Source: Candidatus Tayloriibacteriota bacterium (GTDB taxonomy: Bacteria > Patescibacteriota > Minisyncoccia > Phycocordibacterales > PALSA-1337). From it: a stretch of 64,000 nt of DNA. The first letter of the stretch is position 1; each line of letters begins with the position of its first letter. Positions 5,355 to 40,989 of the stretch are shown here, one piece after another. Position numbers and translations under genes: made by a program. Location of the stretch: NCBI GenBank assembly GCA_052034805.1, contig JBPOID010000005.1, positions 50,984 through 114,983 of the forward strand. Reading direction: 5' to 3'. The notes below the pieces were generated by a model, which saw nothing but the letters and a program-made list of their open reading frames with translations, did no database searches and was not told the origin of the DNA.

Positions 5355-5771
5355 TTACCAACAAGCTATTATCGTACCCATAAGAGTCATGACTACTAGT
5401 GATGATACGCATTCGAAAAGCCATAATGATAATTTCCTTCCCATCCATATCACCTCTATAGAAGAAGATGCCACGATAAATCCCCATGCGAGTAATGCAC
5501 ATAATACGCCACCTAGAGATCCCATCTCTGCTATTTTTGTAGAATTCAAAGCTATTGTGTATAGAGCAGACAAGAGAATTGCTGTTACTATATTTGTTAC
5601 TAGATTCCATACAAGTTGAGGAAGCATATCGCTTAATTTCTCATTTCCAGTTGGATGTATATCTGCAAGTTTCATCCATAATTTCCCGAATACAGGACCA
5701 TGGAATAAAAATCCCACAATAAAAGCTACAAAAGCCGCTACCAAAACTGCTACGAAATCTATTGATATCAT
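5355..5771 (-). CDS. small polytopic membrane protein (unknown function)
   Basis: ORF-track ORF 5355..5849. I trimmed it to the internal ATG (MISIDF...), because the longer N-terminus lies in AT-rich spacer. Confidence 0.4.
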   Translation of the reverse strand: MISIDFVAVLVAAFVAFIVGFLFHGPVFGKLWMKLADIHPTGNEKLSDMLPQLVWNLVTNIVTAILLSALYTIALNSTKIAEMGSLGGVLCALLAWGFIVASSSIEVIWMGRKLSLWLFECVSSLVVMTLMGTIIACW

Positions 5772-5858: not shown

Positions 5859-6410
5859 TTACGGTTTTTTGAAAAGCACTATTATGAGTAGAATGGTGTT
5901 AAAGAAAATACCATTAACTGCATTGATGATTCCTCCCAAGCTCCAATCTGATCCGATCAATGTGAGTAAACACGATAAAGCACTAAATCCCCAAACAGGC
6001 CAAGTGTCTTTTATCGGATTTCTCCATAAATCGATGAAATTGGGAATACCAGCTATATTCATCGCAGTTATACTACCCATAAGACCTATCAATGCACCAT
6101 ATCTAAACCAAATGTATGCACTGATGATAGCCCCGATGGCACAGATAGTCTCTTTATAAGACCAAATCCATTTCCCTCGTACGAACAATGCAATAGCTAC
6201 AGAAGTAGAACCCAAAACCCAAGCCCCTGGCAGATAACCTGGTTCATTATTCGCTATGGTAGTAGCTAGAAGTAGAGAATCAAGCACCACCCACATTACC
6301 CAAGTCGCTCCCGTAGAAGCATGAGCCTTTCGAGTCCATACATTGTAGGCGTACCATAAAAATACACCCAATGCCATTGCACCTCCTGAATATGTAAAGA
6401 ACGTTTTCAA
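5859..6410 (-). CDS. polytopic membrane protein (unknown function)
   Basis: 183 aa ORF with 5-6 hydrophobic segments and clean coding statistics. Confidence 0.45.
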   Translation of the reverse strand: MKTFFTYSGGAMALGVFLWYAYNVWTRKAHASTGATWVMWVVLDSLLLATTIANNEPGYLPGAWVLGSTSVAIALFVRGKWIWSYKETICAIGAIISAYIWFRYGALIGLMGSITAMNIAGIPNFIDLWRNPIKDTWPVWGFSALSCLLTLIGSDWSLGGIINAVNGIFFNTILLIIVLFKKP

Positions 6411-6577
6411 AATCCACCTCCTTTCTGTTTTTTCTGTAATTTTTCTGTGTTTAGAGTATTGTTTACAGTATTTTTTTCCAGTATTTTTTCTATTCAGACA
6501 ATATCATGTGAAAGTGGTTATGTCAATGGAGTGCTAGATACAACTTCTAGAAGACCTCGGTATGATTCATATGGATG

Positions 6578-6648
6578 CTGGGGGACAGGGACTCGAACCC
6601 CGATACTATGCGCCAAAGGCATATGTCCTACCATTAGACGATCCCCCA
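6578..6648 (-). tRNA. tRNA-Gln (anticodon TTG)
   Basis: Cloverleaf folded by eye: acceptor tggggga/tccccca, D-arm TCGTCTAATGGTAGGAC, anticodon stem tatgc/gcata with loop CTTTGGC, T-arm GGGGTTCGAGTCCC. Confidence 0.8.
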
Positions 6649-9746: not shown

Positions 9747-10631
9747 TTATTGATTCTGTTTTGAAAAATATACAGTATTACCAAAATGTAAATTTATGGA
9801 ATCAAATATAGGTGCATTGGCGCTTTTTGCTTTTATTAAAGCATCTTTCCAGAAAACTAATAGATTGGATAATGTATCCTTTAAAGATTTTTTATCATCG
9901 AAATATACAGTTATATCGTCCGTAGATGATGCGTTTTTAGAAAATACATTTTTCAAATACATTTCATATTCTCCATTATCACCGATAAGCATACCGAGAG
10001 GTACTAGACCATTGCTTATAGATACAGAGAGAAAATTCTGCAAATCATCGAATTTATTTTTATCTATAAAATAAGATCCAGTAGAAATATCTTCCTTACT
10101 ATTCGGATAATAATATGTATTGTATGAATTATCATTTACATCACTTGTACTAGCTTTATCATATATATAACCTTTATTATCAGATAAGAAACAATTATCA
10201 ACTATATCATCACCACGGAATCCATCGCAGACAATAGCGCTAGGCATTCTTTCTTCTATATTTATAATTATTTTAGAAATACCTGATCTCTTTACTGAAA
10301 TATCATTTATTATTTTATATTTGGAAATGAGATCATTCATTATATATTTCTTCGGAAAGAAAATAATATTCGAACGAGGAATTATTCCAAAATAATTCCC
10401 TTCTAGATCGGACCAAATAACTTCTTTTATATTATCTGTTAATGAATTATTTGTACCTATCACATCTATATCAGATATTTGGAAAACAGATAATCTAGAT
10501 AAAAGTAAAATATTTATAATAATCAATAATGTACAAAAAATAGAGAGCACAGTAGAAGCAATCAATATCTTTCTTCTTTTCTGTACAAATTTTGAAGACT
10601 TTAAAGCATTTTTATGCCTAGAAAAATACAT
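9747..10631 (-). CDS. ftsQ: FtsQ/DivIB-like cell division protein (TM plus POTRA)
   Basis: A cytoplasmic basic N-terminus, one TM segment, then a POTRA-like segment (VFQISDIDVIGTNNSL...). Confidence 0.5.
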   Translation of the reverse strand: MYFSRHKNALKSSKFVQKRRKILIASTVLSIFCTLLIIINILLLSRLSVFQISDIDVIGTNNSLTDNIKEVIWSDLEGNYFGIIPRSNIIFFPKKYIMNDLISKYKIINDISVKRSGISKIIINIEERMPSAIVCDGFRGDDIVDNCFLSDNKGYIYDKASTSDVNDNSYNTYYYPNSKEDISTGSYFIDKNKFDDLQNFLSVSISNGLVPLGMLIGDNGEYEMYLKNVFSKNASSTDDITVYFDDKKSLKDTLSNLLVFWKDALIKAKSANAPIFDSINLHFGNTVYFSKQNQ

Positions 10632-11987: not shown

Positions 11988-12653
11988 ATGAAAGATGTGA
12001 TACCCATTGTAATCACGGTTACTGTATTCTTTCTTGCTACAGTGGTGTACTGCTCATTCTTTGAATGGAATTTGCACAAACACTGGATGCATAAACCTTG
12101 GAAAATACCTTTCACAAAATGGAAGGTAGAATATCCCTTCAAAGCACATGCTCTGACTCATCATGTGATCTTTAGAGCAGATGAAACATATCATCTCATA
12201 AAAGATGAAGACAAATGGACTATACCTATGGCCTGGTGGAATGGACCGGTGCTCGTTGCCGTATCCTCCACACCATGGATCATTCCATCTATCATAGTGC
12301 ATTCTGTATTCTCTATATCATTTTGGGTGCCTTATACGGCTTCTACCGTTACCATAGCACTCTATTATGTTATATATGAATACATTCATTGGTGCATGCA
12401 TTTGCCACAACCCAAACATCAGAGACTTTTGGAACGTTCTAGTTTGTTCAGAAAGCTGAACGGCCATCATCTCTTGCATCACTTTTGTCAGCACAAGAAT
12501 TTCAATGTGGTTTTTCCACTTGCTGATTTCTTCATGGGTACCTTGATCACGGTTTCCAAATTTCGTTTCAATCAGCCGGAAGGACCGAGCGTACCCAATG
12601 TTCAACCTGACGGAATATCATTGCCTGATAAGAAATTAGTAGGCAATACTTAA
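11988..12653 (+). CDS. fatty acid hydroxylase / sterol desaturase superfamily membrane protein
   Basis: Three His boxes (HKHWMH, HWCMH, HHLLHH) in TM-flanking positions. GC content is above the housekeeping background. Confidence 0.6.
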   Translation: MKDVIPIVITVTVFFLATVVYCSFFEWNLHKHWMHKPWKIPFTKWKVEYPFKAHALTHHVIFRADETYHLIKDEDKWTIPMAWWNGPVLVAVSSTPWIIPSIIVHSVFSISFWVPYTASTVTIALYYVIYEYIHWCMHLPQPKHQRLLERSSLFRKLNGHHLLHHFCQHKNFNVVFPLADFFMGTLITVSKFRFNQPEGPSVPNVQPDGISLPDKKLVGNT

Positions 12654-13084: not shown

Positions 13085-13118
13085 AAAGCAAAATAAAAAG
13101 CGGCGCAACATATGTTGC
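13085..13118 (-). terminator. intrinsic terminator on the minus strand
   Basis: Minus strand reads aagcggtgcaacatatgttgcgccgctt (12 bp stem, one G.U pair) followed by TTTTATTTT. Confidence 0.6.
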
Positions 13119-13400
13119 ACCGCTTCGGCCTAAGCCTTATGGTATCACTCGCGCATGCGAGTACGACCGCTACGGTCGCATTTGACCCGATCCTGAAGCT
13201 TCAGATGTTGTCCAGTATTCGCAGGAATGGCAAACCGGTTGAAAAAATCAATCCCCTCTCCAGCCCTACTCTCTTCCTCGTTACCCCTCCTTGCTTGACG
13301 GGCACTGTGTACTGCGATTTGTCCGCCAGTAGTCAGGACGTTCTGATCATTAACTTTACTCAGGTCTTTCGCCATAGTATTGTAGACTCCGATTTTTTAA
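13119..13400 (-). ncRNA. GC-rich (~50%) transcribed element ending at the terminator: candidate structured ncRNA, or a foreign 76 aa ORF
   Basis: Local GC far above the flanks; several local hairpins (ctgaagcttcag, cgaccgtagcggtcg, ctcgcatgcgcgag). It also carries a GGAG-preceded 76 aa ORF (13145..13375). I cannot tell from sequence alone whether it is coding or structural. Confidence 0.3.
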
Positions 13401-13510
13401 CTACCATTTTTACCAGTATATCCACAACAGATATACTACTCCAACAAAGAATAGTACAAGAACGAATAACAAATGTCAAATGAATTATCAACAAAAATAA
13501 TAAATAGAAT

Positions 13511-17937: not shown

Positions 17938-18018
17938 GCCAGAGTGATGAAATAGAAAACATACTCGACTCAAAATCGAGCGCCGTAAGGCTTGTGGGTG
18001 CAAGTCCCACCTCTGGCA
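17938..18018 (+). tRNA. degenerate class-II tRNA-like sequence (tRNA-Leu CAA-like; probable pseudo-tRNA)
   Basis: 7 bp acceptor gccagag/ctctggc, anticodon stem ctcga/tcgag with loop CTCAAAA, a long variable arm, and a T-stem gtggg/cccac. However the D-loop lacks G18G19 and the T-loop reads TGCAAGT, so U55 is replaced by G. Confidence 0.4.
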
Positions 18019-18193
18019 CAGAATACTATAGGAAATATATAGACCTGAGTCTCACCATGCCCACTATTGACAAATCTATATATGTATATTAATATTTTTA
18101 TAGATTGGATAGTTCCAGTTCTACTGCATAGCTTGTCCATTTATAAAAGGATGCAAAGCAGTAAAAACAAAACAACAAAATAAAGAGGTACGT

Positions 18194-19279
18194 ATGAACC
18201 TAAAACTGATGAGGCCAAGTCTCGATGCTATCACCGTGATAGACAAAGACGGTAAACCCCAAGAAAGATTGGTTTTCCGGGGTGTTATCGATGCAAGTAC
18301 GATTGATTCCATCAAAACAGCTGAATACCAGAGGGAAATTCTCTCTGGAGTAAAGGCTAGCTCACTTACTGTGGCGGCCAAGAATTCTACCCTGCCGGAT
18401 ATTGAGCTCGGTATGCGCGGAGACAGATATCAAACAAGGATAGATAAAGACAGGAATGAAGAATTCTTTATCTTACTTGATGATATCTATGTCATCGACG
18501 GCCTACAGAGAATCAACGCTATCAGAACAGTGATGGCGAGTAAGCCTGAGAATCTTCCGAGGATCGGGGCAATGATTCACACTGATACCGATTTTGATTG
18601 GGAGCGAGAGAGATTTCGTACACTCAATCAAGAAAGATCAAGACTTTCACCAAGCATTCTGCTTAGGAACGCAAGAAAAGATCATCCCGGTCTCGAATTG
18701 CTCTATAACCTGAGCACGACCGACTCCAGCTTTATCTTGAATGGTAAAGTGTCATGGGAACAAAGGCAAAAGAAAACTGAGCTCATACCAGCAATGCGCT
18801 TTTGTCGAACCGTGAGTTATCTGCATTCAAGGTTTATCCCTGGTGGTAGATCAGATGATGTTAGAGAACTCATACCATCTCTTGATAAAAAAAGAGATCT
18901 GGTTGGTCCTAATATCATGAGAGATAATATCAAAGCATTCTTTGACCTCATCGATGAATGCTGGAATATCAGACACATTGTCTACAGAGAGCAACAACCT
19001 CAGATCAAGGCGACATTCCTTGAAGTGGTTGCCGACTTTTTGACGAGACATGAGATTTTCTGGAGTGACAAGCGACTGTTCGTGAAAGCTGATCACAAGA
19101 AAAAGCTTTCGAAATTCGCCATAACCGATCCAGAGGTATCCAGACTCTGCGGTTCTGGTGGACAAGCAAGAAATATTCTGTTCCAAATGCTGATTGAACA
19201 CTTTAACAGTGGCAAAAGGCATGGAAGAATCGGAGTAGAACACACGAATGGAAACAGCGAGGAGAATGGGCATGAATAG
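18194..19279 (+). CDS. DGQHR/DndB-like (ParB-Srx nuclease superfamily, DUF262-like) protein; GC-richer foreign-looking gene
   Basis: YVIDGLQRINAI matches the DG(Q)xR box of the DndB / DUF262 / ParB N-terminal domain. Length is 361 aa. An RBS aaagagg precedes the ATG. GC is about 45% by eye. Confidence 0.5.
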   Translation: MNLKLMRPSLDAITVIDKDGKPQERLVFRGVIDASTIDSIKTAEYQREILSGVKASSLTVAAKNSTLPDIELGMRGDRYQTRIDKDRNEEFFILLDDIYVIDGLQRINAIRTVMASKPENLPRIGAMIHTDTDFDWERERFRTLNQERSRLSPSILLRNARKDHPGLELLYNLSTTDSSFILNGKVSWEQRQKKTELIPAMRFCRTVSYLHSRFIPGGRSDDVRELIPSLDKKRDLVGPNIMRDNIKAFFDLIDECWNIRHIVYREQQPQIKATFLEVVADFLTRHEIFWSDKRLFVKADHKKKLSKFAITDPEVSRLCGSGGQARNILFQMLIEHFNSGKRHGRIGVEHTNGNSEENGHE

Positions 19280-20287: not shown

Positions 20288-21220
20288 CTAGAATTGCTTT
20301 GGCAGGAATCCAGATGCAGCACCATAGCCCGCAGAAACACTATAAACATTACTAGCATCAAAAGATAGCATCCCATTCTCTTCATCGAATTCAAAGCAGG
20401 GCGACCTAGAGAAGTTGCCTTCCTCATCAGAGAACCATTCGTCGCCTGCACAATCAATCCACAAATCATCGTAATCTTGAATACGATCAGGATGTGTGAG
20501 AAGCATCGAACCTACAGCGAATACACCAAGGCCGAATTCATATTCCATATCTTCCATGATGACTCTCGAACGATTGGTAGAACGACCACGATGACGAAGG
20601 CCGAACTGAGCAGGAATGATGAGAATATTAGCATCACCTTGTGTTCTAGCTATCTCATTCCAGAATTGCTCGGAACGACTAGACTGACGCAAATACTTAT
20701 CATTCATTTCATCAGCAAGTGACCTGTAGTTACGTATACTCTTGATAGTAGAGATGATTCTCTTTACCGCCTCACAATAGGTAGAACCGAAAACTTCAGG
20801 ATTCTTCTTCCAGTTAGGAATAGCGAACCAACCTTCTGCAAATCTTGGTAGTCCAGCCGAACGAATACTATTAGTATTGACGAGTATTGTCCGACTGCTT
20901 ACAAAGATCTCTGGAAACAATCCACATAGAAGACTTATCTGATGAGATAAATCCAGAAGTTTGTAACCCGATGGATAACCAGATATGGATTCAATCTCTT
21001 GTTCAGCATACTCATCTACATTTTCAAACTTAGCAATCTGACGAGCAACAAGTGACTGAATGGACGTCACGAATTCAGGATTACCTTTGACGCGTTCCGC
21101 ACTCTTCTCGTTCAAAGCATCAAGTGCATTTTGCACAGGATCAGAATCTGCAACATCACTGATCATACGGATAAGTTGCTTCCTTTGATCATCACTTATC
21201 CCTTCTTGAGTAAGTGCCAT
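20288..21220 (-). CDS. hypothetical cytoplasmic protein, GC-richer (foreign-looking)
   Basis: 310 aa ORF with clean coding statistics and no motif I recognise. It lies between miaA and tRNA-Trp. Confidence 0.5.
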   Translation of the reverse strand: MALTQEGISDDQRKQLIRMISDVADSDPVQNALDALNEKSAERVKGNPEFVTSIQSLVARQIAKFENVDEYAEQEIESISGYPSGYKLLDLSHQISLLCGLFPEIFVSSRTILVNTNSIRSAGLPRFAEGWFAIPNWKKNPEVFGSTYCEAVKRIISTIKSIRNYRSLADEMNDKYLRQSSRSEQFWNEIARTQGDANILIIPAQFGLRHRGRSTNRSRVIMEDMEYEFGLGVFAVGSMLLTHPDRIQDYDDLWIDCAGDEWFSDEEGNFSRSPCFEFDEENGMLSFDASNVYSVSAGYGAASGFLPKQF

Positions 21221-21355
21221 AGACGTTAGCTCCTTTCATGTATGCCGGATTCGCCCCAGCGATTGCGGGTAATTTTTGATGTTTCCATGTCAAATTTCCA
21301 GAGAAAACTATACAATATAGTACAGTATAATGCAATGATTTTAAAAACAAAGTTG

Positions 21356-21426
21356 CGGGCGATCGAGGAATCGAACCCCGGACAACGGTTTTGGAGACCG
21401 TAGTTATACCACTTAACTAATCGCCC
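21356..21426 (-). tRNA. tRNA-Trp (anticodon CCA)
   Basis: Acceptor gggcgat/atcgccc, anticodon stem acggt/accgt with loop CTCCAAA, and T-loop TTCGATT. Confidence 0.8.
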
Positions 21427-21773: not shown

Positions 21774-22829
21774 CTAGCCTTTGCCACCATCGGACGGACC
21801 AGTATAAAGTTTTCCGGGCTTTTGAAAATCAACCCAGTCAAACTTTACACGATATGTTCCATCTGCTGGAAACACAACAGTATATTCACTGTTAAATTTA
21901 CCAGCACCGGTCCAAGGTCCACCGACCTGACTGAAACTAAGAGCAAAAGGATGTTCAATATTAACTTCGGCGCCATCCTGAACTAAACCACTAATGTCAA
22001 ACCTGATGACTTGACCTTTGGTAACTGTGATCAGGACCGTGGGTTTATTGTAAACTTCCACGATTTTCACCAGCGCTACATCCTTCGGTGAAAGTTCGAA
22101 AACATAGTGACCTTCGATCTTCCAAGATCCATTTCTCTCATTGGTGGCGCCAGGGGTATTACCCTTAGCATCCCAAAGATTATAGGTCATAACATTTCCA
22201 TCAGTGAATCTGATAGAGAGAATACCATTAGGTACACCCGCCATCCAAGTATCAAACAAGACTCTATTATTATTCACTGACACGCTCTCTTTCCGAACAG
22301 TGTTACCATCATCGCCGATAACAAGGATTTCGGCTGATTGAACCTGATCCCCAATCGCAACTCTTTGAATCCAGATATTGTACTGAGGAGGTCCATACTT
22401 TCCGATCTCTGAAACGAGATAGGAAGCGTAGCCGTAGAAAACAAGGTTATTGTCCTTGTCGTAAAGCCACACATGACCCTCGATTTTGTCGAGAGGATTT
22501 GCGACTTTGTACTTGAACTCAACAGCGAAAAGCTGATTGAGTACATCTTCTGCTCCGTTACCAGTCTTACTGGCATAGATGACAGAATTGTCATCATAAA
22601 CCATACTCGATGAAGATACCGACCTCGCCCCACGGACAACTTGTCCGAGAGCATAATTCCTGATCGTATCTTTGGACTGAATCGGCATGTCTACCGCCAG
22701 AGCTTTCGTGCTGAAACTGAAACCGATCACCATCATCAAGATAGCAACGATACTACGAATCATGATTTTCATTGTCTTTGTTTCCTTCTTTGGTTTTTCC
22801 TGTGTTTTGTTTTTTGTTGATACTAACAC
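21774..22829 (-). CDS. secreted hypothetical protein (signal peptide, beta-rich), GC-richer
   Basis: Basic N-terminus plus a hydrophobic segment, then a long domain with no motif I recognise. A terminator-like compound hairpin lies at about 21690..21730. Confidence 0.5.
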   Translation of the reverse strand: MLVSTKNKTQEKPKKETKTMKIMIRSIVAILMMVIGFSFSTKALAVDMPIQSKDTIRNYALGQVVRGARSVSSSSMVYDDNSVIYASKTGNGAEDVLNQLFAVEFKYKVANPLDKIEGHVWLYDKDNNLVFYGYASYLVSEIGKYGPPQYNIWIQRVAIGDQVQSAEILVIGDDGNTVRKESVSVNNNRVLFDTWMAGVPNGILSIRFTDGNVMTYNLWDAKGNTPGATNERNGSWKIEGHYVFELSPKDVALVKIVEVYNKPTVLITVTKGQVIRFDISGLVQDGAEVNIEHPFALSFSQVGGPWTGAGKFNSEYTVVFPADGTYRVKFDWVDFQKPGKLYTGPSDGGKG

Positions 22830-22861: not shown

Positions 22862-23233
22862 CTACTTCTGTGCCTCTCTCGCAATCTTTTGACGAGCGAG
22901 AATTTCACTTTCGGCCATTGGAATTGGCTGATTTGATGAAGCACCGATCATATTGAAAGATGCACCCTTATCAACCACCTCAATGACTTCCTGCTCCTGA
23001 CCAGCTCGCTTCGCCATGATCTCTGCTTTGGCATCATGACTGCGATTGTTTGCCGGTACTGCATTCTGCAGAACCGGTGTGGTGTCTTTCTTGAACATAG
23101 GCACCATAACGATGGAGACCATGACGAGAATGAGACCCAAACAGAAGAGAACCACAGGGGTTCTCACGACTTTGTTGTCTCGCCTATCGACGATACGATG
23201 ATTGGTTGCCAGAAACTTATGTCCCATAATCAA
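22862..23233 (-). CDS. small membrane-anchored protein co-oriented with 21774..22829
   Basis: One TM segment (VVLFCLGLILVMVSIVMV) and a hydrophilic C-terminus; GC-richer composition. Confidence 0.45.
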   Translation of the reverse strand: MIMGHKFLATNHRIVDRRDNKVVRTPVVLFCLGLILVMVSIVMVPMFKKDTTPVLQNAVPANNRSHDAKAEIMAKRAGQEQEVIEVVDKGASFNMIGASSNQPIPMAESEILARQKIAREAQK

Positions 23234-25611: not shown

Positions 25612-25697
25612 TGGTGCGCCGGGCTGGACTCGAACCAGCGATGGCCAATGGCCGCTTGATTTACAGTCAAGTGTAATAGCCGCTATACGACCGGCGC
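25612..25697 (-). tRNA. tRNA-Tyr (anticodon GTA), CCA encoded
   Basis: Acceptor gcgccgg/ccggcgc, anticodon loop CTGTAAA, a long variable arm, T-loop TTCGAGT, and a 3' ACCA. Confidence 0.8.
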
Positions 25698-32465: not shown

Positions 32466-32510
32466 AATGAATATAGAATAAAGTATTATATAAATCAATT
32501 GAAATCAAAT

Positions 32511-32584
32511 GGCGTAGTGGCGAAGTTGGTCAACGCGACAGTCTGCAAAACTGTTATGCGCCGGTTCGATCCCGGCCTACGCCT
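32511..32584 (+). tRNA. tRNA-Cys (anticodon GCA)
   Basis: Acceptor ggcgtag/ctacgcc, anticodon stem acagt/actgt with loop CTGCAAA, and T-loop TTCGATC. Confidence 0.8.
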
Positions 32585-32663
32585 CAAAATAAAGATAATA
32601 ATTCAATAGATTTTACATTTTCTATATATACGTGATAACATGATATAAATAAGAAATATTAAT

Positions 32664-32747
32664 GCCCGGGTGGCGTAATTGGTAGCCGCAGTAGACTTAA
32701 AATCTGCCGACCGTAAGGTCATGTGGGTTCGATTCCCACCCCGGGCA
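32664..32747 (+). tRNA. tRNA-Leu (anticodon TAA)
   Basis: Acceptor gcccggg/cccgggc, anticodon loop CTTAAAA, a long variable arm, and T-loop TTCGATT. Confidence 0.8.
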
Positions 32748-32815
32748 CATTTGATTAGTGTTATATAGAATACCTAACATCCCCCCAACAATCCAAAAGA
32801 TGTTAGAATATAGGC

Positions 32816-33535
32816 ATGTATAGAATAGTACATGGTTTCAGAATAACTAAAAAAAGAAAACATAAGAAAATATTAGGTACACTTTTATTATTATTTATAA
32901 TACTAATATCCAGTATAATATTCTTCTCATCAGGCGATTCTGCAAATATATTATTATCTAATCTATTACTATCATTATTTAGACTTGTTATAGCTTATTT
33001 TATATCTCTAACTTTAGCTATATTGATAGCCATACCGGTAAGCAATACTAGATTTGGAGATTTTATGATACCTGTTTTTGATCTATTACAGAATCTTCCT
33101 TCATTCGCATTAATTCCTATTTTTATATCTTGGCTTGGATATACAAATATTATGACAATAGTATTCGCCGCCACCTCCATCCTTTGGCCAATATTATTTT
33201 ATATATTACATGCCTTAAAGACAGCATCGAAGGATCAAGAAAATGCAGCGAGAATATTCGGTGCAAAAGGTATAAAGAAAGTATTATTTTTTTCTTTACC
33301 TGTATCCTTCCCTGCTATCATCACAGGTTCAATAGTCGGTTTCAGTATTGGCTGGGAAGCTATAATAGGAGTTGAGATTATAGGATTAACGAATGGCATA
33401 GGTTCATTTATAAATAATCCATCACATAATAACAATCTAGTGCTAGGTATATCTGCTTTACTTGTCATAGTATTTCTAATAAACAGATTGGTATGGATGC
33501 CATTATTAAAGAAATCACAATTATATGCAGAATAA
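32816..33535 (+). CDS. ABC transporter permease (SsuC/TauC-like BPD inner membrane component)
   Basis: 6-TM permease with an EAA-like loop; overlaps the downstream ATPase gene. Confidence 0.7.
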   Translation: MYRIVHGFRITKKRKHKKILGTLLLLFIILISSIIFFSSGDSANILLSNLLLSLFRLVIAYFISLTLAILIAIPVSNTRFGDFMIPVFDLLQNLPSFALIPIFISWLGYTNIMTIVFAATSILWPILFYILHALKTASKDQENAARIFGAKGIKKVLFFSLPVSFPAIITGSIVGFSIGWEAIIGVEIIGLTNGIGSFINNPSHNNNLVLGISALLVIVFLINRLVWMPLLKKSQLYAE

Positions 33536-34259
33536 AAATATAGCCGAAATAAAAGATCTTTCTTATTCATATATAAATGAAGAGACTAATGAACATATAA
33601 ATGTAATAAAGGATATATCTTTCCATATAAAAAGTGGAGAATTCTTGTCTATAGTTGGACCATCAGGTTGTGGCAAATCTACATTATTAGAAATAATTGC
33701 AGGATTAATAAAAGCAAAGCATGGAAATATAATTTTGAATACAGATAGAATATCATTTGTATTCCAGAATTTTGCCTTATTCCCTTGGCTTACTGTTAGA
33801 GAAAATATTGAATTTGGTTTAAAGATGAAAAATATTCCAAAAGCAGAGAGAAAAAAGATATCAGAAGAAAAAATAGAAGAAATCGGTTTAAAAGGTTTTG
33901 AAAATAAATATCCAATAGAATTATCAGGAGGAATGAAACAAAGAGTAGGTATTGCAAGAGCATTAGCTATAAATCCAGAATTATTACTTATGGATGAGCC
34001 CTTCTCAAGTCTCGATGTAATCACAGCAGAAAAATTGAGAGCAGAATTACTTGAAATATGGAAAAAATACAAAATGACAATTGTTATGGTTACACATCTA
34101 GTAGATGAGGCGGTAGAATTATCTGATAGAGTATTGATATTCGGTAAAAGACCTACATATATAAAGGAAACTATAACAATAGATTCTGTTAAACCTAGAG
34201 ACAAAAGATCTCATGAGTATTACAAGATAATAGACGATATAACAAATAAAATAGAATAA
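33525..34259 (+). CDS. ABC transporter ATP-binding protein (SsuB/TauB-like)
   Basis: Walker A GPSGCGKST, signature LSGGMKQR, and Walker B LLLMDEP. Confidence 0.85.
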   Translation: MQNKNIAEIKDLSYSYINEETNEHINVIKDISFHIKSGEFLSIVGPSGCGKSTLLEIIAGLIKAKHGNIILNTDRISFVFQNFALFPWLTVRENIEFGLKMKNIPKAERKKISEEKIEEIGLKGFENKYPIELSGGMKQRVGIARALAINPELLLMDEPFSSLDVITAEKLRAELLEIWKKYKMTIVMVTHLVDEAVELSDRVLIFGKRPTYIKETITIDSVKPRDKRSHEYYKIIDDITNKIE

Positions 34260-34367
34260 AGAAGGTGAATAAATGATCACACTTTAAAACTAAATTAAAA
34301 AGTATATACGCCCATAGTCGTCATTGCTAATTATCATTATTTCTGTTATATTTTTTCATGTATCTTT

Positions 34368-34440
34368 GTTTGTAAATGTAATAATGTAAATATGCGCCCA
34401 TAGCTGTTTTGGTAGTTAAAGACAGGATGAGGTGATATGA
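34368..34440 (+). repeat. first unit of a 73 bp tandem duplication carrying the tRNA-Lys upstream region plus a decayed copy of the tRNA 5' half
   Basis: gtttgtaaatgtaataatgtaaatatgcgcccatagct occurs at 34368 and again at 34441. The first copy continues as gttttggtagttaaagacagg, a degenerate version of the D-arm cagttggtagagcagatccc. Confidence 0.75.
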
Positions 34441-34466
34441 GTTTGTAAATGTAATAATGTAAATAT

Positions 34467-34539
34467 GCGCCCATAGCTCAGTTGGTAGAGCAGATCCCTC
34501 TTAAGGATAAGGTCGTAGGTTCGACCCCTACTGGGCGCA
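34467..34539 (+). tRNA. tRNA-Lys (anticodon CTT)
   Basis: Acceptor gcgccca/tgggcgc, D-arm TAGCTCAGTTGGTAGAGC, anticodon loop CTCTTAA, and T-loop TTCGACC. Confidence 0.85.
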
Positions 34540-34594
34540 CAAGTTTCAATAAAATTGAAACGAATATATAATATAATTCAGTTATATATTATAT

Positions 34595-34675
34595 GCCGAG
34601 GTGGCGAAATTGGCAGACGCACTTGCCTTAGGAGCAAGCGGGGTGACCCATGGAGGTTCAAGTCCTCTCCTCGGC
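34595..34675 (+). tRNA. tRNA-Leu (anticodon TAG)
   Basis: Acceptor gccgagg/cctcggc, anticodon loop CTTAGGA, a long variable arm, and T-loop TTCAAGT. Confidence 0.8.
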
Positions 34676-34819
34676 ACAATCTGATATAAAACCCATATAA
34701 ATACCCATTGACAAAAGGGTTATTTGATGTATAATTATATAAGAACAGGCATTTAAACCGAAGCTAAAGCTTAGGTTGAAAGTTGAAATAACAATCAAAA
34801 TAAGGGGAAAGAAAAGTTT

Positions 34820-35989
34820 ATGATTCGATCATGGATGGCTGAAGATGGGAGAACGATCTGGGCGGAAGCTCCGGATAAATACCCTCAATGGATGGTTGGT
34901 GTGGCCAAAATTGGGTTTCTAAATTACCTGAATCCCTTCGGAGAAAGGGTTATGTCAGAGAAAGAAGAGCTGAAGCCCGTCTCCAAGGGAGACAAGGACG
35001 GCGAAGACAATATCGCCAAAGCCGGTAACGTTTGGTACAAGCTCGAGGTCAGCAAGAAACTAGCCCTTAAGAAGGGTAAAAAATATATGGTAGAAATCAT
35101 GCCATATGAGATGCCCCCCGTCCCTGGACCAGGAACTACATCACCCACTCCAGTCCCAACAAAAGACTTGTACAGAGTGGACCTCTCGAGGGTGAACAAG
35201 GGAAAGAAAGGGTTTTGGCTTTTTCTATTCATTCTTGCAACCATCATTGTACTCGGAACAATCGGCTACAAGACCTTTCAGTGGTATAAAAACCACAAAA
35301 AAGAATCCGTGCCGATCATGGGTACAAACAGTGTAGGAAATGGCGTAGAACAATTGATCCAGAAAAACCTGGAAATGTCGGGAAAGATTGAGGAGTTGGA
35401 GAAGAAATTGGAAGAGCAAAGGAAGAAAAGCTCTACCAACTCATCGACTTCTTCTATTTATCCCACCCCACCGACGAATTCGACACCAACGAATCTGCCC
35501 ACGAGTGTTTCCCTCACCCACACTACAAATCAAATTGTAGTGACCAATATCAGTCAGGAAAGAGAAAGTCGGGAAAGGATTGATTCTGGCGGGCAAGTTG
35601 TTGTAGTGAACGGAGGTGGAAATAAATTCACCTTCCATAACTATAACGGTAGAAGTAACGGGGACACATACAACACATCACCAAAAGTGATGTGGCCGGA
35701 CGATAGCAGGCCAAATCGTCACTACCCTATTATGGGCGAAAAGGTGGATTTGCCACCTGGTGAAGATTACTGCTATTGTTACCCTACTACTGGAAAGTGG
35801 AGGGTGGACGTATATACTGATGCGGAATCAGTGAAAAGTGCCTACAATGTAGGCACCGAGCAAGAACCTAAATGGGTTCTAACGCGGGATTTCAATCCCA
35901 CTCAAACAGCAGTTGGGCTCAGACTCAAAAATCTGAGTCAAACAAAGATAAGTGTCACATTTGTTCTTACAAGGAAAGCAGGTCCTTGA
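34820..35989 (+). CDS. single-pass membrane protein with a coiled-coil and a Pro/Thr-rich linker (unknown function), GC-rich
   Basis: Central TM segment (FWLFLFILATIIVLGTIGY), then an EELEKKLEEQRKK coiled region and a low-complexity TPPTNSTPTN linker; about 48% GC by eye. Confidence 0.5.
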   Translation: MIRSWMAEDGRTIWAEAPDKYPQWMVGVAKIGFLNYLNPFGERVMSEKEELKPVSKGDKDGEDNIAKAGNVWYKLEVSKKLALKKGKKYMVEIMPYEMPPVPGPGTTSPTPVPTKDLYRVDLSRVNKGKKGFWLFLFILATIIVLGTIGYKTFQWYKNHKKESVPIMGTNSVGNGVEQLIQKNLEMSGKIEELEKKLEEQRKKSSTNSSTSSIYPTPPTNSTPTNLPTSVSLTHTTNQIVVTNISQERESRERIDSGGQVVVVNGGGNKFTFHNYNGRSNGDTYNTSPKVMWPDDSRPNRHYPIMGEKVDLPPGEDYCYCYPTTGKWRVDVYTDAESVKSAYNVGTEQEPKWVLTRDFNPTQTAVGLRLKNLSQTKISVTFVLTRKAGP

Positions 35990-36015
35990 GGAGCGAACTA
36001 CACTAGGGCATGGCG

Positions 36016-36049
36016 CAAGCCATGCCCTTTATTATTTTTATATATGATA
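36016..36049 (+). terminator. intrinsic terminator
   Basis: gggcatggcgcaagccatgccc followed by TTTATTATTTTT. Confidence 0.65.
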
Positions 36050-36201
36050 CTCCAAGCATTAAAAACGCCATTTTAGCTAATAATTTAAGGATATAAATGA
36101 TATTGACTTTATGTCTTATTTATGTTAATATAATAAGAGAAACAAAGAGATCGGTGTTAATAAACAAAAACACTTTTGACAACAAAAAACAGGAGACAAA
36201 A

Positions 36202-37161
36202 ATGAAAATGGTAGAAGAAAATAAGGTACCGAATGGACCGATGGTCCTCGGTATCACAGTGTTTCTGGCTATAATAAGCCTGACACTATTTGTAACAGGG
36301 GTACTCATAGAGATTCCTATGGAATTCTCTATCCCCCTTTCACTAGCCCTTGCAAGTAGCATCTTTTACAAAAAAGTGCTCGGCAATTTCCTAGTCATCG
36401 TACCGGAAAACAAAGCATGGATCATATCCAATGCTTTCAAAGACGAAGAAGTTTCTGAAAATAGTCTCACAGAGACTGGCTATAGAAATATCAAGGCTCA
36501 GAGAGAACTTCAAGCGGGAATACATTTCATATACCCTTGGGAAAGTAAAGCTGAGGAAATCGATATGAAATGGTTCAATTCCATCGGTTCCAAAGAAGAA
36601 GATGGTGGAAACTCTTACACTCTCAAGAACGGACGCACTGTAAAAATTGCGTGGCAAGTCAGAGTAGTACCACTTCCAGGGTTCTTGGTCAACTTCAATC
36701 GAAGCGACAAGAAAGACATCGAGAGAAAGGTAAGAGCTCGAGCCGAAGCCTTCTTCCAAGGATATATCGGTAATCTAGAACTTGTTCAATTTGGAAATGA
36801 ACAAAAGAAAGACATCGAAAAAGCCTTCGAAAATCTATGGGGTGGAGAATCTACTAAAGACGATCAAGAAAAAGAGCTTGGAGTCTGGACTGGTACACCC
36901 GAAGTATTTGATATCAGCAATCCTAAAGATGTTGAGATTCAAATGAACTGGGAAGCCATAATGTTGTCTACCACAACAATTGCAAAGAGAATGGTAGAGG
37001 AATCTGGAAACAAGATGTCCTTCCAAGATGCTATGAGATTGGCTCTAATAGGCCAAGGCAAAGCAAAAATGGAAATGGTGGATGTTGTGGGCCTCCTCGG
37101 AGGAGGAGGTAAAAAAGATCAACAGCAACAACAAAGACAGCCTAAAAAAGGAGGTAAGTGA
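36202..37161 (+). CDS. SPFH/Band-7 (stomatin/HflK-like) domain membrane protein
   Basis: Start moved to the ATG preceded by aggaga (MKMVEEN...). N-terminal TM, then IVPENKAWIISNAF...AGIHFIYPW...RVVPLPGFLVNF, resembling the SPFH core, and a C-terminal coiled/Gly-Gln-rich tail. Confidence 0.45.
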   Translation: MKMVEENKVPNGPMVLGITVFLAIISLTLFVTGVLIEIPMEFSIPLSLALASSIFYKKVLGNFLVIVPENKAWIISNAFKDEEVSENSLTETGYRNIKAQRELQAGIHFIYPWESKAEEIDMKWFNSIGSKEEDGGNSYTLKNGRTVKIAWQVRVVPLPGFLVNFNRSDKKDIERKVRARAEAFFQGYIGNLELVQFGNEQKKDIEKAFENLWGGESTKDDQEKELGVWTGTPEVFDISNPKDVEIQMNWEAIMLSTTTIAKRMVEESGNKMSFQDAMRLALIGQGKAKMEMVDVVGLLGGGGKKDQQQQQRQPKKGGK

Positions 37162-37574
37162 TGGGTACAACAACAAAAGAAGGTGTAATAAAGACCCTGT
37201 CTTTCATTACACTAATTCTCATCATAATAGGGACTGCAACCTATTTTAAATTCAAATACCACTCTAGCGGTGGCATCATGCAGTACATCGTCGGAGATGA
37301 TACGAAACCTCGTCATTCTCTAGTCATCACCGAAGATTGGTCCAAGTCAATCCCCATCAACGTCAACAGTTACCTAAGGGAAGACGAAACCTGGGTAGAA
37401 GTATGCGTGGTGGGAGGCGGTACAAACGGTGACTTCATCTATGATGTTCCTCCGAAAAGCATGAGGGGGAACGACTGGAGGCCACCAGAGCTCAAAGGTA
37501 TATCTCTACGATACCGACTGGCTCCTGGAAAGAACAAAGTTAAGTCAGCAGAAATATTCTATGTTATGAAGTAG
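37158..37574 (+). CDS. small membrane-anchored protein, possibly the NfeD-like partner of the SPFH protein
   Basis: Overlaps the SPFH gene stop (ATGA), has an N-terminal TM and a beta-rich C-terminal domain. The pairing with SPFH is an inference from the known SPFH-NfeD operon arrangement. Confidence 0.3.
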   Translation: MMGTTTKEGVIKTLSFITLILIIIGTATYFKFKYHSSGGIMQYIVGDDTKPRHSLVITEDWSKSIPINVNSYLREDETWVEVCVVGGGTNGDFIYDVPPKSMRGNDWRPPELKGISLRYRLAPGKNKVKSAEIFYVMK

Positions 37575-37591
37575 GGAAACATAGAATGCAA

Positions 37592-37629
37592 AAAGGGCGC
37601 CACATTAGTGAACGCCCTTTCTTTTTATC
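37592..37629 (+). terminator. intrinsic terminator
   Basis: aagggcgccacattagtgaacgccctt followed by TCTTTTTAT. Confidence 0.6.
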
Positions 37630-38854: not shown

Positions 38855-39301
38855 TTATTTCTTAAGCAAACTCTCATTTACCAAACCACTAGAAGTAAGA
38901 GTATTCTGTACAACAGAGACTATCAATTTTGCACTTATAAGCACTGCAGTACCTATAACTGCATATAGAAACCATGATTTGGCTTCACTCAATGCTTTAT
39001 CATTACCTTGAGCCATAACGAATTTGAAACCAATCCATATAAACATAAGTACAGCCACTATCATACCGATAAACATAGCCATATCTACTACAGAGAATAA
39101 TAATTCAGTCACACTATTGGCTTTAAGAGGATTACTAAGTGTTGGAAAAACAGAATTATTTATAGGTGAAGTATTATTCAATGATTGTTTAGAACTTGTA
39201 TCATTCAAAGGTTGTTGACTTCCAGATTGAGCAAATACAGGAACAGAACTTATTATGAATAATGTAATTATGATTAATGAGGAAATTAGAAATTTTTTCA
39301 T
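38855..39301 (-). CDS. small secreted TM-loop-TM protein, VirB2/TrbC-pilin-like architecture (paralog 1)
   Basis: Signal peptide ending VFA|QSGS, then TM1, loop AQGNDKALSEAKSW, and TM2. Confidence 0.5.
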   Translation of the reverse strand: MKKFLISSLIIITLFIISSVPVFAQSGSQQPLNDTSSKQSLNNTSPINNSVFPTLSNPLKANSVTELLFSVVDMAMFIGMIVAVLMFIWIGFKFVMAQGNDKALSEAKSWFLYAVIGTAVLISAKLIVSVVQNTLTSSGLVNESLLKK

Positions 39302-39306
39302 ATTTT

Positions 39307-40989
39307 TTATTTTATAAAGGTAGTTACTCCAGAATCACTTTTTGCAATATAATCTACTATAGTTCTCACTCCTATCCACGCTACAAGCATTATTATAAAC
39401 CCAATTGCCGTAGTTACAAATATGGATTTAGCTTTTGATATATTTTTTGATATACCTGTCATATATAGAAGTCCAGCCCAAGCAAACATAGCAGTAGCAA
39501 TAGGAATAGATATTAGGAACATCCATGTTATAAGACCTAATATTGTATCTATAAGAGCTTTGAAATCGCATACTTTATCTCTATATGTCTCTCCCTTTTT
39601 CAATACTCCATCGCATTTTACGAAACCACTATAGTCCAATACAGAAGCCATCATATTGCTTATTGCTGAATGTTTCTTTATCTCTACAGATAAAGGATTT
39701 TGTAATGATAGATCTAATTCCCCACTTGCAGTTTGTATAGCATCATAAACATTAGTTCTACCACTTGTTATTGATTCGATCATTTTCTGGAATATTTGAT
39801 TTGTTCTAGAAGAATTCATATCTAACCAAGATTTAGATATTAGAGCAGCATCATAGAAAATAGATTGATAAGGATCGGATGAACCAGTAGCTATCATATC
39901 TCTTCTTACTGGTGGCAAATATGTGATTTGATTCAAAGATGCCAAAGCACTTGGATCCGTAAGTATTTTGAATATTGTATATACAGAACTTTGATTCTTT
40001 GAAGCTTTCACTATTGATAATCCATACATAGAACCATAATTAACGGAATTTTTTGCATCTCTTATTTGTGGTAATGTTGTTACATCGAAACTAATATTCA
40101 CATTTTTTTGTTTTATATCAAAAAGTTCTGAAGCAAAGCCGAAATAAGTAGCTAATGAGCCAGACAAAAATGCACTTTTTGAATTCGGCAATGATCTATT
40201 CCATGAATAATCTGCATTATTAGGATCAGAAAACTTTGTGAATAATTCTACAGCAGAAGTAGTCAATCTCGAACCAGAATATTGACCATCGCCTAGAGAA
40301 CTTACTAATGCATCACCTTTATTTGAAACAACAGGATTTCCGTATTGAAGAATAAGAGAACCTAATATTTCTTTTGCATTATTTATATTTGCAAATTCAC
40401 CCATAGCTATCGCTGTTCTACGTATATTAGAATTAGAATCTTTTGTATTTATTTTTGATATTAAATTATCAAATTCATCCCAATATTTCGGAGGAAGGGC
40501 TATCCTTGCATTTGTAAATATATCTTTATTCCAATACATTACTAGAGGATCAATAGTAAAAGGTATAGCCAAAGCTCCATCATTCGATAAATAAAGTTCG
40601 GCTTGAGCTATATATGTATTTTTGAAATCTCTTTCGGAGAGAATACTATAAGGTATAGGTAAAACCTTATCTCTATGTCTCAATATCATATTCTGAGGTA
40701 TAAGTATTGCATCAGGACCAGCACCACGAGCCAAAGCTTCTATAAAATCTTGATCGAATTTATCTTTTGATTTCTGTGTATAGTTTATAGATATTTGGAA
40801 ATTACTTGTGCTGTTTATTTTCTGCATTAGATTATTCACCGATTCAGCTGGAAAAGTTCCCCATATCGATATAACTGGTAATTCTGTATTTGTACTTTCT
40901 GATTTGTAAGTAGCGAAAAGCGCAACACCAACTATTATACAAATAACGAAAATTGCTATTGTTATGATTTGAAATTTACTAGTATTCAT
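39307..40989 (-). CDS. membrane-tethered extracellular solute-binding-protein-like domain fused to a C-terminal TM-loop-TM module homologous to the four small proteins
   Basis: N-terminal TM; a large domain with SBP family-1-like AIPFTIDPLVMYWNKDIF; C-terminus MFAWAGLLYMTGISKNISKAKSIFVTTAIGFIIMLVAWIG aligns with MFIWIGFKFVMAQGNDKALSEAKSWFLYAVIGTAVLISAKLIV of ORF 38855..39301. Confidence 0.55.
   Translation of the reverse strand: MNTSKFQIITIAIFVICIIVGVALFATYKSESTNTELPVISIWGTFPAESVNNLMQKINSTSNFQISINYTQKSKDKFDQDFIEALARGAGPDAILIPQNMILRHRDKVLPIPYSILSERDFKNTYIAQAELYLSNDGALAIPFTIDPLVMYWNKDIFTNARIALPPKYWDEFDNLISKINTKDSNSNIRRTAIAMGEFANINNAKEILGSLILQYGNPVVSNKGDALVSSLGDGQYSGSRLTTSAVELFTKFSDPNNADYSWNRSLPNSKSAFLSGSLATYFGFASELFDIKQKNVNISFDVTTLPQIRDAKNSVNYGSMYGLSIVKASKNQSSVYTIFKILTDPSALASLNQITYLPPVRRDMIATGSSDPYQSIFYDAALISKSWLDMNSSRTNQIFQKMIESITSGRTNVYDAIQTASGELDLSLQNPLSVEIKKHSAISNMMASVLDYSGFVKCDGVLKKGETYRDKVCDFKALIDTILGLITWMFLISIPIATAMFAWAGLLYMTGISKNISKAKSIFVTTAIGFIIMLVAWIGVRTIVDYIAKSDSGVTTFIK

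Follow-up and report, generated by a model that had tools for sequence, protein, structure and literature searches.

The window analyzed here, 64,000 nucleotides (nt) of DNA from a Candidatus Tayloriibacteriota bacterium (assembly GCA_052034805.1, contig JBPOID010000005.1, positions 50,984 to 114,983), contains a tRNA-Lys(CTT) gene that is preceded by a partial copy of its own 5′ end (Table 1). The conserved part of this copy is a 22-mer that also precedes tRNA-Lys genes in other Paceibacteria, where it is kept between sharp edges and independently of the gene next to it. We propose that the 22-mer is probably a cis-acting recognition element of the tRNA-Lys precursor, which would most likely act on the RNA, in its processing or its stability.

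A Partial tRNA-Lys Copy Upstream of the Functional Gene

A repeat search identified positions 34368–34415 and 34441–34488 as a 48-nt direct repeat with 94% identity and a start-to-start distance of 73 nt. The first 38 nt are identical, and the second copy runs into the tRNA-Lys gene. An earlier note on this DNA had described a 38-bp block with this period, and had taken the first copy for a nonfunctional 5′ piece of tRNA-Lys; both statements are confirmed. The pseudo-copy lies head-to-tail with the gene, as a pseudogene fragment left by partial duplication does, and its homology to the tRNA is confined to tRNA positions 1–22. Past the shared GCGCCCATAGCT, copy 1 reads GTTTTGGTAG and the gene reads CAGTTGGTAG. 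Neither ARAGORN nor Rfam calls a tRNA at 34394–34466. No Rfam family, including RtT, matches 34260–34466 at E-values up to 10, and only tRNAs were found in the window and 18 related loci at gathering thresholds and in 34260–34820 at E-values up to 10. By eye, AGGATGAGGT in the unit resembles tRNA positions 38–47 (AGGATAAGGT), and we considered a longer, decayed tRNA copy. In a shuffle test of the unit tail against tRNA positions 23–73, the tail in the window gave p of about 0.05 and just 1 of 41 tails (that of a sister strain) reached p < 0.05, so homology past position 22 is not established.

The further fragment that the note had placed near 34308 is real as well. It lies 86 nt ahead of copy 1. 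With two mismatches allowed, the 64 kb contain the 14-mer ATATGCGCCCATAG three times, always at the tRNA-Lys locus and on the plus strand; none of 100 dinucleotide shuffles reached three occurrences (mean 0.24). Two assemblies from different sequencing runs (L003 and L005; L-numbers label the related contigs and loci that were compared with the window) match the window identically until their contigs end, both inside copy 1. Since such ends are expected for a repeat longer than the assembler word length, an assembly artifact is unlikely. The repeat search, the shuffle test, and the independent assemblies together show that the repeat is real and not due to chance.

Table 1. Features at the tRNA-Lys locus (window coordinates)
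Feature	Position	Strand	Remarks
Third, truncated copy ATATACGCCCATAG	34304..34317	+	unit positions 2–10; upstream of the promoter
Predicted sigma-70-type promoter of the tRNA-Lys/tRNA-Leu transcript	34324..34352	+	promoter scan, consensus match
Block X1, 26 nt, identical to X2	34368..34393	+	repeat-unit 5′ flank, directly 5′ of the pseudo-copy
Conserved 22-mer GCGCCCATAGCTGTTTTGGTAG	34394..34415	+	defining block of family A; tRNA-Lys 1–22 with CAG to GTT at 13–15
Unit tail TTAAAGACAGGATGAGGTGATATGA	34416..34440	+	with the 22-mer, predicted fold over 34394–34434
Strain-specific 25 nt ATGAGTTTGTAAATGTAATAATGTA	34437..34461	+	missing in L001, L002, and L004
Block X2, second copy of the 26-nt flank	34441..34466	+	directly 5′ of the functional tRNA-Lys
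Functional tRNA-Lys(CTT)	34467..34540	+	ARAGORN; Rfam 68.9 bits; CCA not encoded
tRNA-Leu(TAG)	34595..34677	+	ARAGORN, Rfam; conserved downstream partner of tRNA-Lys in the lineage

A sister strain of the same species (L001, L002, and L004; 98.2–99.95% DNA identity) also contains the pseudo-copy, without the 25 nt listed in Table 1, with a period of 48 nt (73 nt in the window) and with no second X block. Its single X block differs from X1 at 6 of 26 positions. Its third fragment (AAACCCATAGCTGTC) carries five differences and keeps the pseudo-type GT at positions 13–14. The 43-nt core of the unit shows one substitution between the strains, T34408C, in surroundings that are 98.2% identical; this exchange turns a predicted U·G pair into a C–G pair. 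Since both strains contain the pseudo-copy, the partial copy predates the strain split. The perfect 38-bp repeat is a recent state at the level of the strain.

The 22-mer Occurs Upstream of tRNA-Lys in Many Paceibacteria

For comparison we assembled a set of one genome per species containing the exact tRNA-Lys(CTT) sequence, which gave 66 loci and covers this one exact tRNA. All 66 are metagenome-assembled genomes from Patescibacteria, also known as the candidate phyla radiation (CPR), with finer labels such as Taylor-, Zambryski-, and Nomurabacteria or Paceibacterota; some are labeled "uncultured Candidatus Saccharibacteria" or "uncultured bacterium". In addition to the window, the 22-mer is present in 10 of these 66 species (L015, L016, L017, L019, L034, L042, L045, L050, L057, and L068). 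Their units, which we call family A, always carry GTT in place of CAG, and the 22-mer is followed by 14–58 nt that cannot be aligned. The units stand alone or in tandem, with up to three or more at a locus of the genome set and one to four copies when metagenomes are included.

An exact-pattern search of metagenomes returned 33 contigs, whereas 2.9 million viral contigs gave no match. In 29 of the 33 contigs, a tRNA-Lys gene follows the unit within 36–146 nt. The anticodon is CTT in 18 cases, TTT in 10 cases, in which the tRNA bodies are different, and odd in one case. The remaining four contigs show no tRNA downstream; three of them end 47–75 nt past the last unit, and the fourth (L089), with a degenerate unit, continues for 241 nt. 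All 62 unit copies in the sequences compared are arranged in tandem, directly upstream of tRNA-Lys or cut by a contig end. We also counted 5′ partial copies of any tRNA gene, defined as the first 10 nt of the gene with at most one mismatch, within 200 nt upstream and on the same strand. Such copies precede 20 of 63 tRNA-Lys genes (window included) and 2 of 106 other tRNA genes, both of the latter in a single species (L019, Zambryskibacteria RIFCSPHIGHO2_12_FULL_43_12b), whose tRNA-Lys has three units. In this species, a 21-nt piece of the tRNA-Cys 5′ end recurs without mismatch 108 nt upstream of the tRNA-Cys gene, and the tRNA-Leu(TAG) gene has a decayed copy 103 nt upstream (reverse strand of the locus, oriented positions 5573–5593 and about 6300–6320).

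Several contigs start (L010, L011/L072, L024, L067, and L111) or end (L003 and L005) at or inside tRNA-Lys or the upstream repeat. This site therefore regularly breaks short-read assemblies, either through the repeat or through variation in the population.

Conservation Stops at Both Edges of the 22-mer

The 11 species found through the tRNA form the unbiased set for measuring conservation; the metagenome contigs were retrieved with the 22-mer as the query. Among these 11 species, mean pairwise identity is 0.34 from positions −20 to −1 relative to the unit start, 0.90 at unit positions 1–12, 0.96 at 13–22, 0.32 at 23–32, and 0.31 at 33–41. The edges of the 22-mer are sharp on both sides, and across species the block is conserved beyond its flanks, as is typical of a leader element. 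The unit-bearing species share 39–69% IF-2 identity with the organism of the window. Within subfamilies, the tails have diverged by substitution and the 22-mer has not.

The tRNA gene itself is not the source of this uniformity. In 25 of 32 loci, the D-loop of the adjacent tRNA differs from CAGTTGGTAG (CAGCTGG, CAGTCGG, CAAGCTGG, or CAGCTGGAG), and at these 25 loci the unit keeps GTTTTGGTAG (GTTTTGG). Since the unit is independent of the neighboring D-loop, gene conversion from the tRNA gene cannot maintain the 22-mer.

The Units Probably Lie in the Leader of the tRNA Precursor

The predicted promoter (Table 1) consists of a −35 element TTGCTA (34324–34329), a 17-nt spacer with TG at 34344–34345, and a −10 element TATATT (34347–34352), and would place the transcription start near 34358–34360. 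It lies between the third fragment and X1, upstream of copy 1, and is not part of the duplication. The earlier note had taken the duplicated block to contain the promoter; scanning the 26-nt X block (GTTTGTAAATGTAATAATGTAAATAT) gave no promoter-like match, and this part of the claim is not supported. At least 42 of 62 species have the pattern TTG(C/T)nn-17-TAnAnT with TG ahead of the tRNA or of the first copy, always with a 17-nt spacer. In species without a unit, the promoter precedes the tRNA by 8–40 nt. In species with units, it precedes the first unit, with a gap of 9–10 nt in L016, L022, L045, and L050 and of 41 nt in the window. Because the promoter is upstream of the first copy, the units are probably contained in the primary transcript and removed with the leader, and the pseudo-copy thus probably sits in the pre-tRNA leader. 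At the left junction of an insertion of ABC transporter genes, a TTTGATT motif after tRNA-Leu(TAA) was considered as the start of a −35 element and dropped, because comparison with L050 shows an ordinary spacer at this place.

Origin and Maintenance of the Units

Family A may go back to one old partial duplication of the tRNA-Lys 5′ end. The units would since have been gained, lost, and homogenized by unequal recombination or slippage across the 12–19 nt that they share with the gene. Such events would explain the match of flanks within species, the perfect 38-bp repeat, and the patchy presence of units. The 10–26 nt 5′ of the unit match those 5′ of the gene in the window, L015, L016, L019, L034, L096, and L110; they differ in L017 and L045, and they also differ between species. 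Tandem arrays of identical units are found in L034, L091, and L100. Unit presence varies between close relatives: the closest species, L043 (83% IF-2 identity), has none, and the units in L048, L052, and L064 are decayed.

The same observations could be read as the behavior of a neutral pseudogene or minisatellite, the conservation of which would be only apparent because units are regenerated by slippage, crossing-over, or conversion within arrays or between the two tRNA-Lys loci of a genome. The identical units in arrays, the homogenized flanks, the loss and decay in close relatives, the independent partial 5′ copies at other tRNAs of L019, the gene-like copy in L075, and the weak support for a common RNA fold (see below) are what this explanation leads one to expect. 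However, most species have a single unit, for which the gene is the only homogenizing partner, and conversion from the gene would restore CAG together with the local D-loop, which is not seen in 25 of the 32 loci. Neutral regeneration also has to account for tails that diverge by substitution next to a 22-mer that does not, and for an identity that falls at either edge, over a single base, from 0.96 to 0.32 among species that share 39–69% IF-2 identity with the organism of the window. We therefore regard this explanation as unlikely, although it is the strongest of the competitors.

Recognition of the 22-mer in the tRNA-Lys precursor would proceed as follows. The unit would be transcribed within the pre-tRNA leader, where it would mimic the 5′ acceptor strand and the D-loop of tRNA-Lys, and RNase P would cut it off at 34467. 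One crossover of the unit with the gene would be enough to delete the unit, and the GTT signature could not be regained from the gene. Easy loss, no route to regain GTT, and retention in species at 39–69% IF-2 identity together point to purifying selection. With less confidence than we have in a cis-acting role as such, we suggest as a possibility that the 22-mer (GCGCCCAUAGCUGUUUUGGUAG) serves tRNA-Lys operons throughout the Paceibacteria as a functional element not described before, which might be read by a factor that recognizes tRNA-Lys and might set the level or the maturation of this tRNA. Candidate readers would be a nuclease of tRNA processing, an enzyme that modifies or aminoacylates tRNA-Lys, or a toxin or endonuclease directed at tRNA-Lys, with the 22-mer as its decoy.

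Several points weigh against a functional element. Both the promoter and the start site are predicted from consensus matches. Conservation can be measured without bias only in the 11 species taken from genomes, and the genome set is limited to species that match one exact tRNA-Lys(CTT) pattern. In L075, a gene-like partial copy with CAG retained precedes tRNA-Lys; this copy and the non-Lys copies of L019 show that such copies can arise by mutation alone. The cluster of strain differences at X1 is not unique either, since further clusters lie at 35800–35999 and 39100–39299, which suggests that recombination patches are common in this region. Finally, RNA folding provides little help. The family A fold z-scores are mixed (mean −0.48), enrichment of the stems is weak (the outer stem was matched in 3 of 300 shuffles and the inner stem in 31 of 300), and the minimal units of 36–40 nt show no obvious fold.

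RNA Folding and a Second Leader Family

The unit of the window is predicted to fold into an outer stem (CGCCCAU with AUG-A-GGUG) that encloses a hairpin (CUGUUUU with AAGACAG), with −14.5 kcal/mol and a z-score of −1.9; the z-score of the L001 unit is −4.0. An acceptor-like stem enclosing a hairpin is also predicted for several other units. Given the mixed z-scores and the weak stem enrichment, the predictions overall do not support one RNA fold shared by family A, and this result favors recognition of the sequence itself.

About 13 species (L021, L022, L032, L037, L040, L051, L054, L055, L065, L071, L059, L036, and L031) contain a second type of leader, family B, which keeps only GCGCCCATA at the base of a hairpin closed by GGCGC. 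This first hairpin, GCGCCCA-loop-(T)GGGCGC, resembles an acceptor-stem minihelix and often has a TTCG loop. RNAalifold predicts nine pairs, four of them with compensatory changes; in L071 (GCGTCCCGAT...ATCGGGACGC) two of the nine pairs carry double changes. Further hairpins follow, including a long second one, and the leader ends in CCTCGCTT or CTCACTC, so that 71–82 nt in all precede tRNA-Lys. The family B leader matches no Rfam family. Its relation to family A rests on position and on the first nine bases.

A Double-Stranded DNA Site as an Alternative

A block that is conserved in sequence rather than in structure, and between sharp edges, might also be read as double-stranded DNA. The 22 bp could be the target, or a disabled target, of a free-standing LAGLIDADG homing endonuclease, the units being footprints of break repair or amplification, or the block could be an operator for a regulator of tRNA-Lys transcription. 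Among the alternatives, this is the main one that offers a mechanism. LAGLIDADG enzymes recognize sites of about 18–22 bp. Genes of this type stand in the same tRNA cluster in L001, L050, L096, L107 (two copies), and L111, and all four LAGLIDADG loci with a visible region upstream of tRNA-Lys carry units. The phage T4 endonuclease SegB sets a precedent: its gene sits in a tRNA cluster, its site contains a conserved tRNA motif, and it drives segmental amplification (PMC2330249, PMC13096335). On the other hand, there is no LAGLIDADG gene in the window, and only 1 of the 10 unit-bearing species of the unbiased set contains one. Two of the four unit-bearing LAGLIDADG loci were found through the unit, so no association is shown; the numbers are too small and partly biased by the way in which the loci were discovered. 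Moreover, there is no obvious reason why a nonessential pseudo-site should be conserved as an endonuclease target. A DNA site thus appears improbable to us, more so than a neutral repeat, and recognition at the RNA level remains our preferred explanation for the 22-mer.

The LAGLIDADG genes (PF14528; the two that were tested score above the Pfam cutoff) occupy three different spacers of the Cys-Leu-Lys-Leu cluster, at 2213–2968 in L001, 50–700 in L111, about 961–1563 and 1990–2673 in L107, about 7956–8549 in L096, and about 1705–2271 in L050. The reading frame extends into the following tRNA gene in L001 and L111, an arrangement that recalls segB in the T4 cluster.

The Copies Are Not an Attachment-Site Scar

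Integration commonly produces partial copies of tRNA genes (PMC9897764), and the earlier note had read the copies as a scar of integration or excision that belongs to the GC-rich stretch downstream. This stretch does exist (34800–37600, about 44% GC compared with about 30%) and contains three open reading frames (ORF1–3, 34820–37574) that have no family match and are atypical in composition: the GC content at third codon positions is 0.38–0.48, compared with 0.14–0.24 in neighboring genes. The spacers of this tRNA cluster are also insertion hot spots. Within the set compared, the pair of ABC permease and ATPase genes between tRNA-Leu(TAA) and tRNA-Lys (32816–34259) is found in this species only, and other genes have been inserted into the cluster in L001, L043, and L111.

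Nevertheless, the arrangement of the copies does not fit. The integration model places partial and complete copies at opposite ends of a kilobase-sized element (PMC9897764). Here, the copies stand 73 and 86 nt apart and enclose no ORF or other cargo, and at more than 40 other loci their distance to the gene does not exceed 146 nt. Neither a partial tRNA-Lys nor a direct repeat lies at the other end of the GC-rich stretch (about 37600), where the note had suggested looking, or at the left end of the ABC insertion (32750–32815). The only other 12-nt match (35430–35441, minus strand, E 0.33) is attributed to chance. Among the 10 ORFs between 32816 and 40989, Pfam and NCBIfam identify no recombinase; they find ABC transporter parts, pilins, and a solute-binding protein, and three ORFs remain without a match. 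A viral origin is not supported either, since the 22-mer has no match in viral contigs and PHROGs gave only weak membrane or coiled-coil matches for ORF1–3, none of them meaningful. The combination that marks attachment-site duplicates, namely copies at opposite ends, an adjoining recombinase, and an element absent from relatives, was not found.

The supposed link to the GC-rich genes fails as well, by the test that the note itself had set. ORF1–3 occupy the same place, between tRNA-Leu(TAG) and the pilin genes, in L006–L008, L010, L011, and L111. These include relatives at 37–48% identity, one of which (L006) has no pseudo-copy. Conversely, the pseudo-copy also occurs in species with a different neighborhood, for example beside an apparent rpmF on the opposite strand (by eye). 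The synteny of ORF1–3 indicates that the GC-rich block was inherited in place and not inserted; a relative at 80% identity shows the same GC contrast against its own low-GC background. Nor is the ABC insertion bounded by tRNA-Lys copies. The third fragment sits at its right-hand end and may or may not have arrived with the ABC genes; the two homologues of these genes whose contexts were looked up (70–73% identity) stand in unrelated contexts with no tRNA or unit nearby. The spacers of the cluster have collected other ORFs in L001 and L043 as well as the LAGLIDADG genes named above, and none of these insertions is bounded by tRNA-Lys copies. In our reading, the upstream copy is not an attachment-site scar and has no connection with the GC-rich genes; that the copies are nonetheless attL/attR-type traces of a mobile element at tRNA-Lys, with the GC-rich genes as its integrated cargo, we hold to be very improbable.

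Comparison with Known Systems

The tRNA fragments of integrative elements flank elements of 9–121 kb and usually represent the 3′ part of the gene (van der Gulik et al. 2023, PMC9897764). They share with the present case a partial, nonfunctional tRNA copy near an intact gene on the same strand. They differ in that attachment-site duplicates vary from case to case, whereas the units described here carry the same three substitutions in dozens of species, represent the 5′ 22 nt, lie 36–146 nt from the gene, enclose no cargo, and match no viral contig.

In architecture, the tyrT operon of E. coli comes closest. Each of its 178-bp repeats carries about 19 nt of the tRNA-Tyr 3′ end. Its tandem units contain a piece of tRNA, as those of family A do, and are transcribed with the tRNA and released in processing, as family A units would be if they lie in the leader. 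According to the account in PMC4986893, which cites Bosl and Kersten (1991), transcripts of the tRNA operon give rise to RtT RNA, and homologues of it are reported there upstream of tRNA-Asn and tRNA-Lys genes in Pasteurellaceae. In contrast, the units in Paceibacteria lie 5′ of the gene, copy the tRNA 5′ end, are much shorter, belong to another phylum, and have no Rfam match.

SegB resembles the present loci in that endonuclease genes stand between tRNA genes, as LAGLIDADG genes do in the same cluster of relatives of the window, and its cleavage promotes local co-conversion and tandem segmental amplification. It differs in being a GIY-YIG rather than a LAGLIDADG enzyme, in the motif (T arm rather than 5′ end), and in that it amplifies whole tRNA genes.

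The thrS operator and T-box leaders are tRNA mimics in leaders. Such mimics, like pseudo-tRNAs, retain a tRNA-like sequence that is not used in translation, and so do the units; the regulatory role is that of the known systems. The known systems are complete tRNA-like folds, or represent the anticodon arm or the acceptor end in the leader of an mRNA, unlike the units, which contain only the acceptor 5′ strand and the D-loop and probably stand in the leader of the tRNA's own gene. The "tRNA-Other" of Bacillus cereus is a functional pseudo-tRNA (PMC3399842).

In the literature searched, we found no description of such a leader element in CPR bacteria. There is a realistic chance that the 22-mer represents a new functional element, of the kind of tRNA-derived repeats in tRNA operons. 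To our knowledge, tRNA processing and regulation have been little studied in this lineage. If the conservation reflects function, the 22-mer would be a new kind of cis element in tRNA expression in uncultivated bacteria with small genomes, and it would offer a concrete 22-nt target for experiments. Partial tRNA copies are routinely read as marks of integration, and the mimics of the tRNA-Lys 5′ end form a class that is not: short, imitating the 5′ end, located between predicted promoter and gene, tied to one tRNA identity, and about as conserved as the tRNA. Besides breaking short-read assemblies, the repeat could lead island-finding tools astray when they take tRNA fragments for boundaries.

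Gene Neighborhood and Further Observations

Upstream of the locus, the gene order is IF-2, rbfA, tRNA-Cys, tRNA-Leu(TAA), and the ABC pair. In L006, the four tRNA genes form one tight cluster. Downstream, every readable context shows the order tRNA-Lys, tRNA-Leu(TAG), (one extra ORF), ORF1, ORF2, ORF3, and pilin genes, which continues with a solute-binding protein, a methyltransferase, and tRNA-Gln. For ORF2, a set of 5.8 billion proteins yielded only seven homologues. Between tRNA-Leu(TAG) and ORF1 stands a perfect sigma-70 consensus (TTGACA-16-TATAAT, 34708–34735), and a similarly strong promoter is found at the same place in L111. This predicted promoter suggests that ORF1–3 may be expressed at a very high level.

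The GC content at third codon positions is bimodal in the window: about 12 ORFs fall between 0.34 and 0.53, and all other genes between 0.14 and 0.25. The former are located at 3449–4291(−), 4541–5203(−), 5859–6410(−), 11988–12653(+), 13112–13483(+), 18194–19279(+), 20288–21220(−), 21774–22829(−), 22862–23233(−), and within 34820–37574(+). Pfam scans of ten of them gave no match, and none of the 12 is a paralogue of another. Four of the five patches that they form adjoin a tRNA gene on the same strand and mostly lie directly downstream of it: tRNA-Gln (6577–6648), tRNA-Leu (17938–18019), tRNA-Trp (21355–21426), and tRNA-Lys/Leu (34467–34677). The GC-rich "island" is one instance of a genome-wide pattern.

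All 10 tRNA genes of the window were inspected for an encoded 3′ CCA, which only tRNA-Tyr (25612–25697) has. Most of them have an A/T-rich, −10-like sequence within a few nucleotides of the 5′ end, which suggests that very short leaders may be the default state of tRNA genes in the window.

The flanking genes place the window in a Patescibacteria genome of the Paceibacteria group. On the minus strand, the pilin region comprises four pilin genes of PF18895 and a gene for a solute-binding protein to which a pilin domain is fused. The latter (39307–40989, minus strand) encodes 560 amino acids with a C-terminal pilin domain of the type IV secretion system (T4SS) kind. In L006, L010, and L011, the solute-binding protein has 425–431 amino acids and the pilin is encoded by a neighboring gene of its own; a gene fusion seems to have taken place in the lineage of the window.

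A hypervariable zone (window 32469–32769, L001 2175–5246) separates a left part in which the two strains share 99.95% identity from a right part in which they share 98.2%. Identity falls to about 87% around tRNA-Cys and tRNA-Leu(TAA), although the tRNA-Leu(TAA) gene is the same in both. In this zone, L001 has about 3 kb of extra DNA with the LAGLIDADG ORF and three further ORFs whose function is unknown. After ORF3 and ahead of the first pilin gene (window 37575–37582, L001 about 10094–10195), the sister strain contains about 100–155 additional nt, which include a terminator-like hairpin (AAAAAGGGCG...CGCCCTTTCTTTTT).

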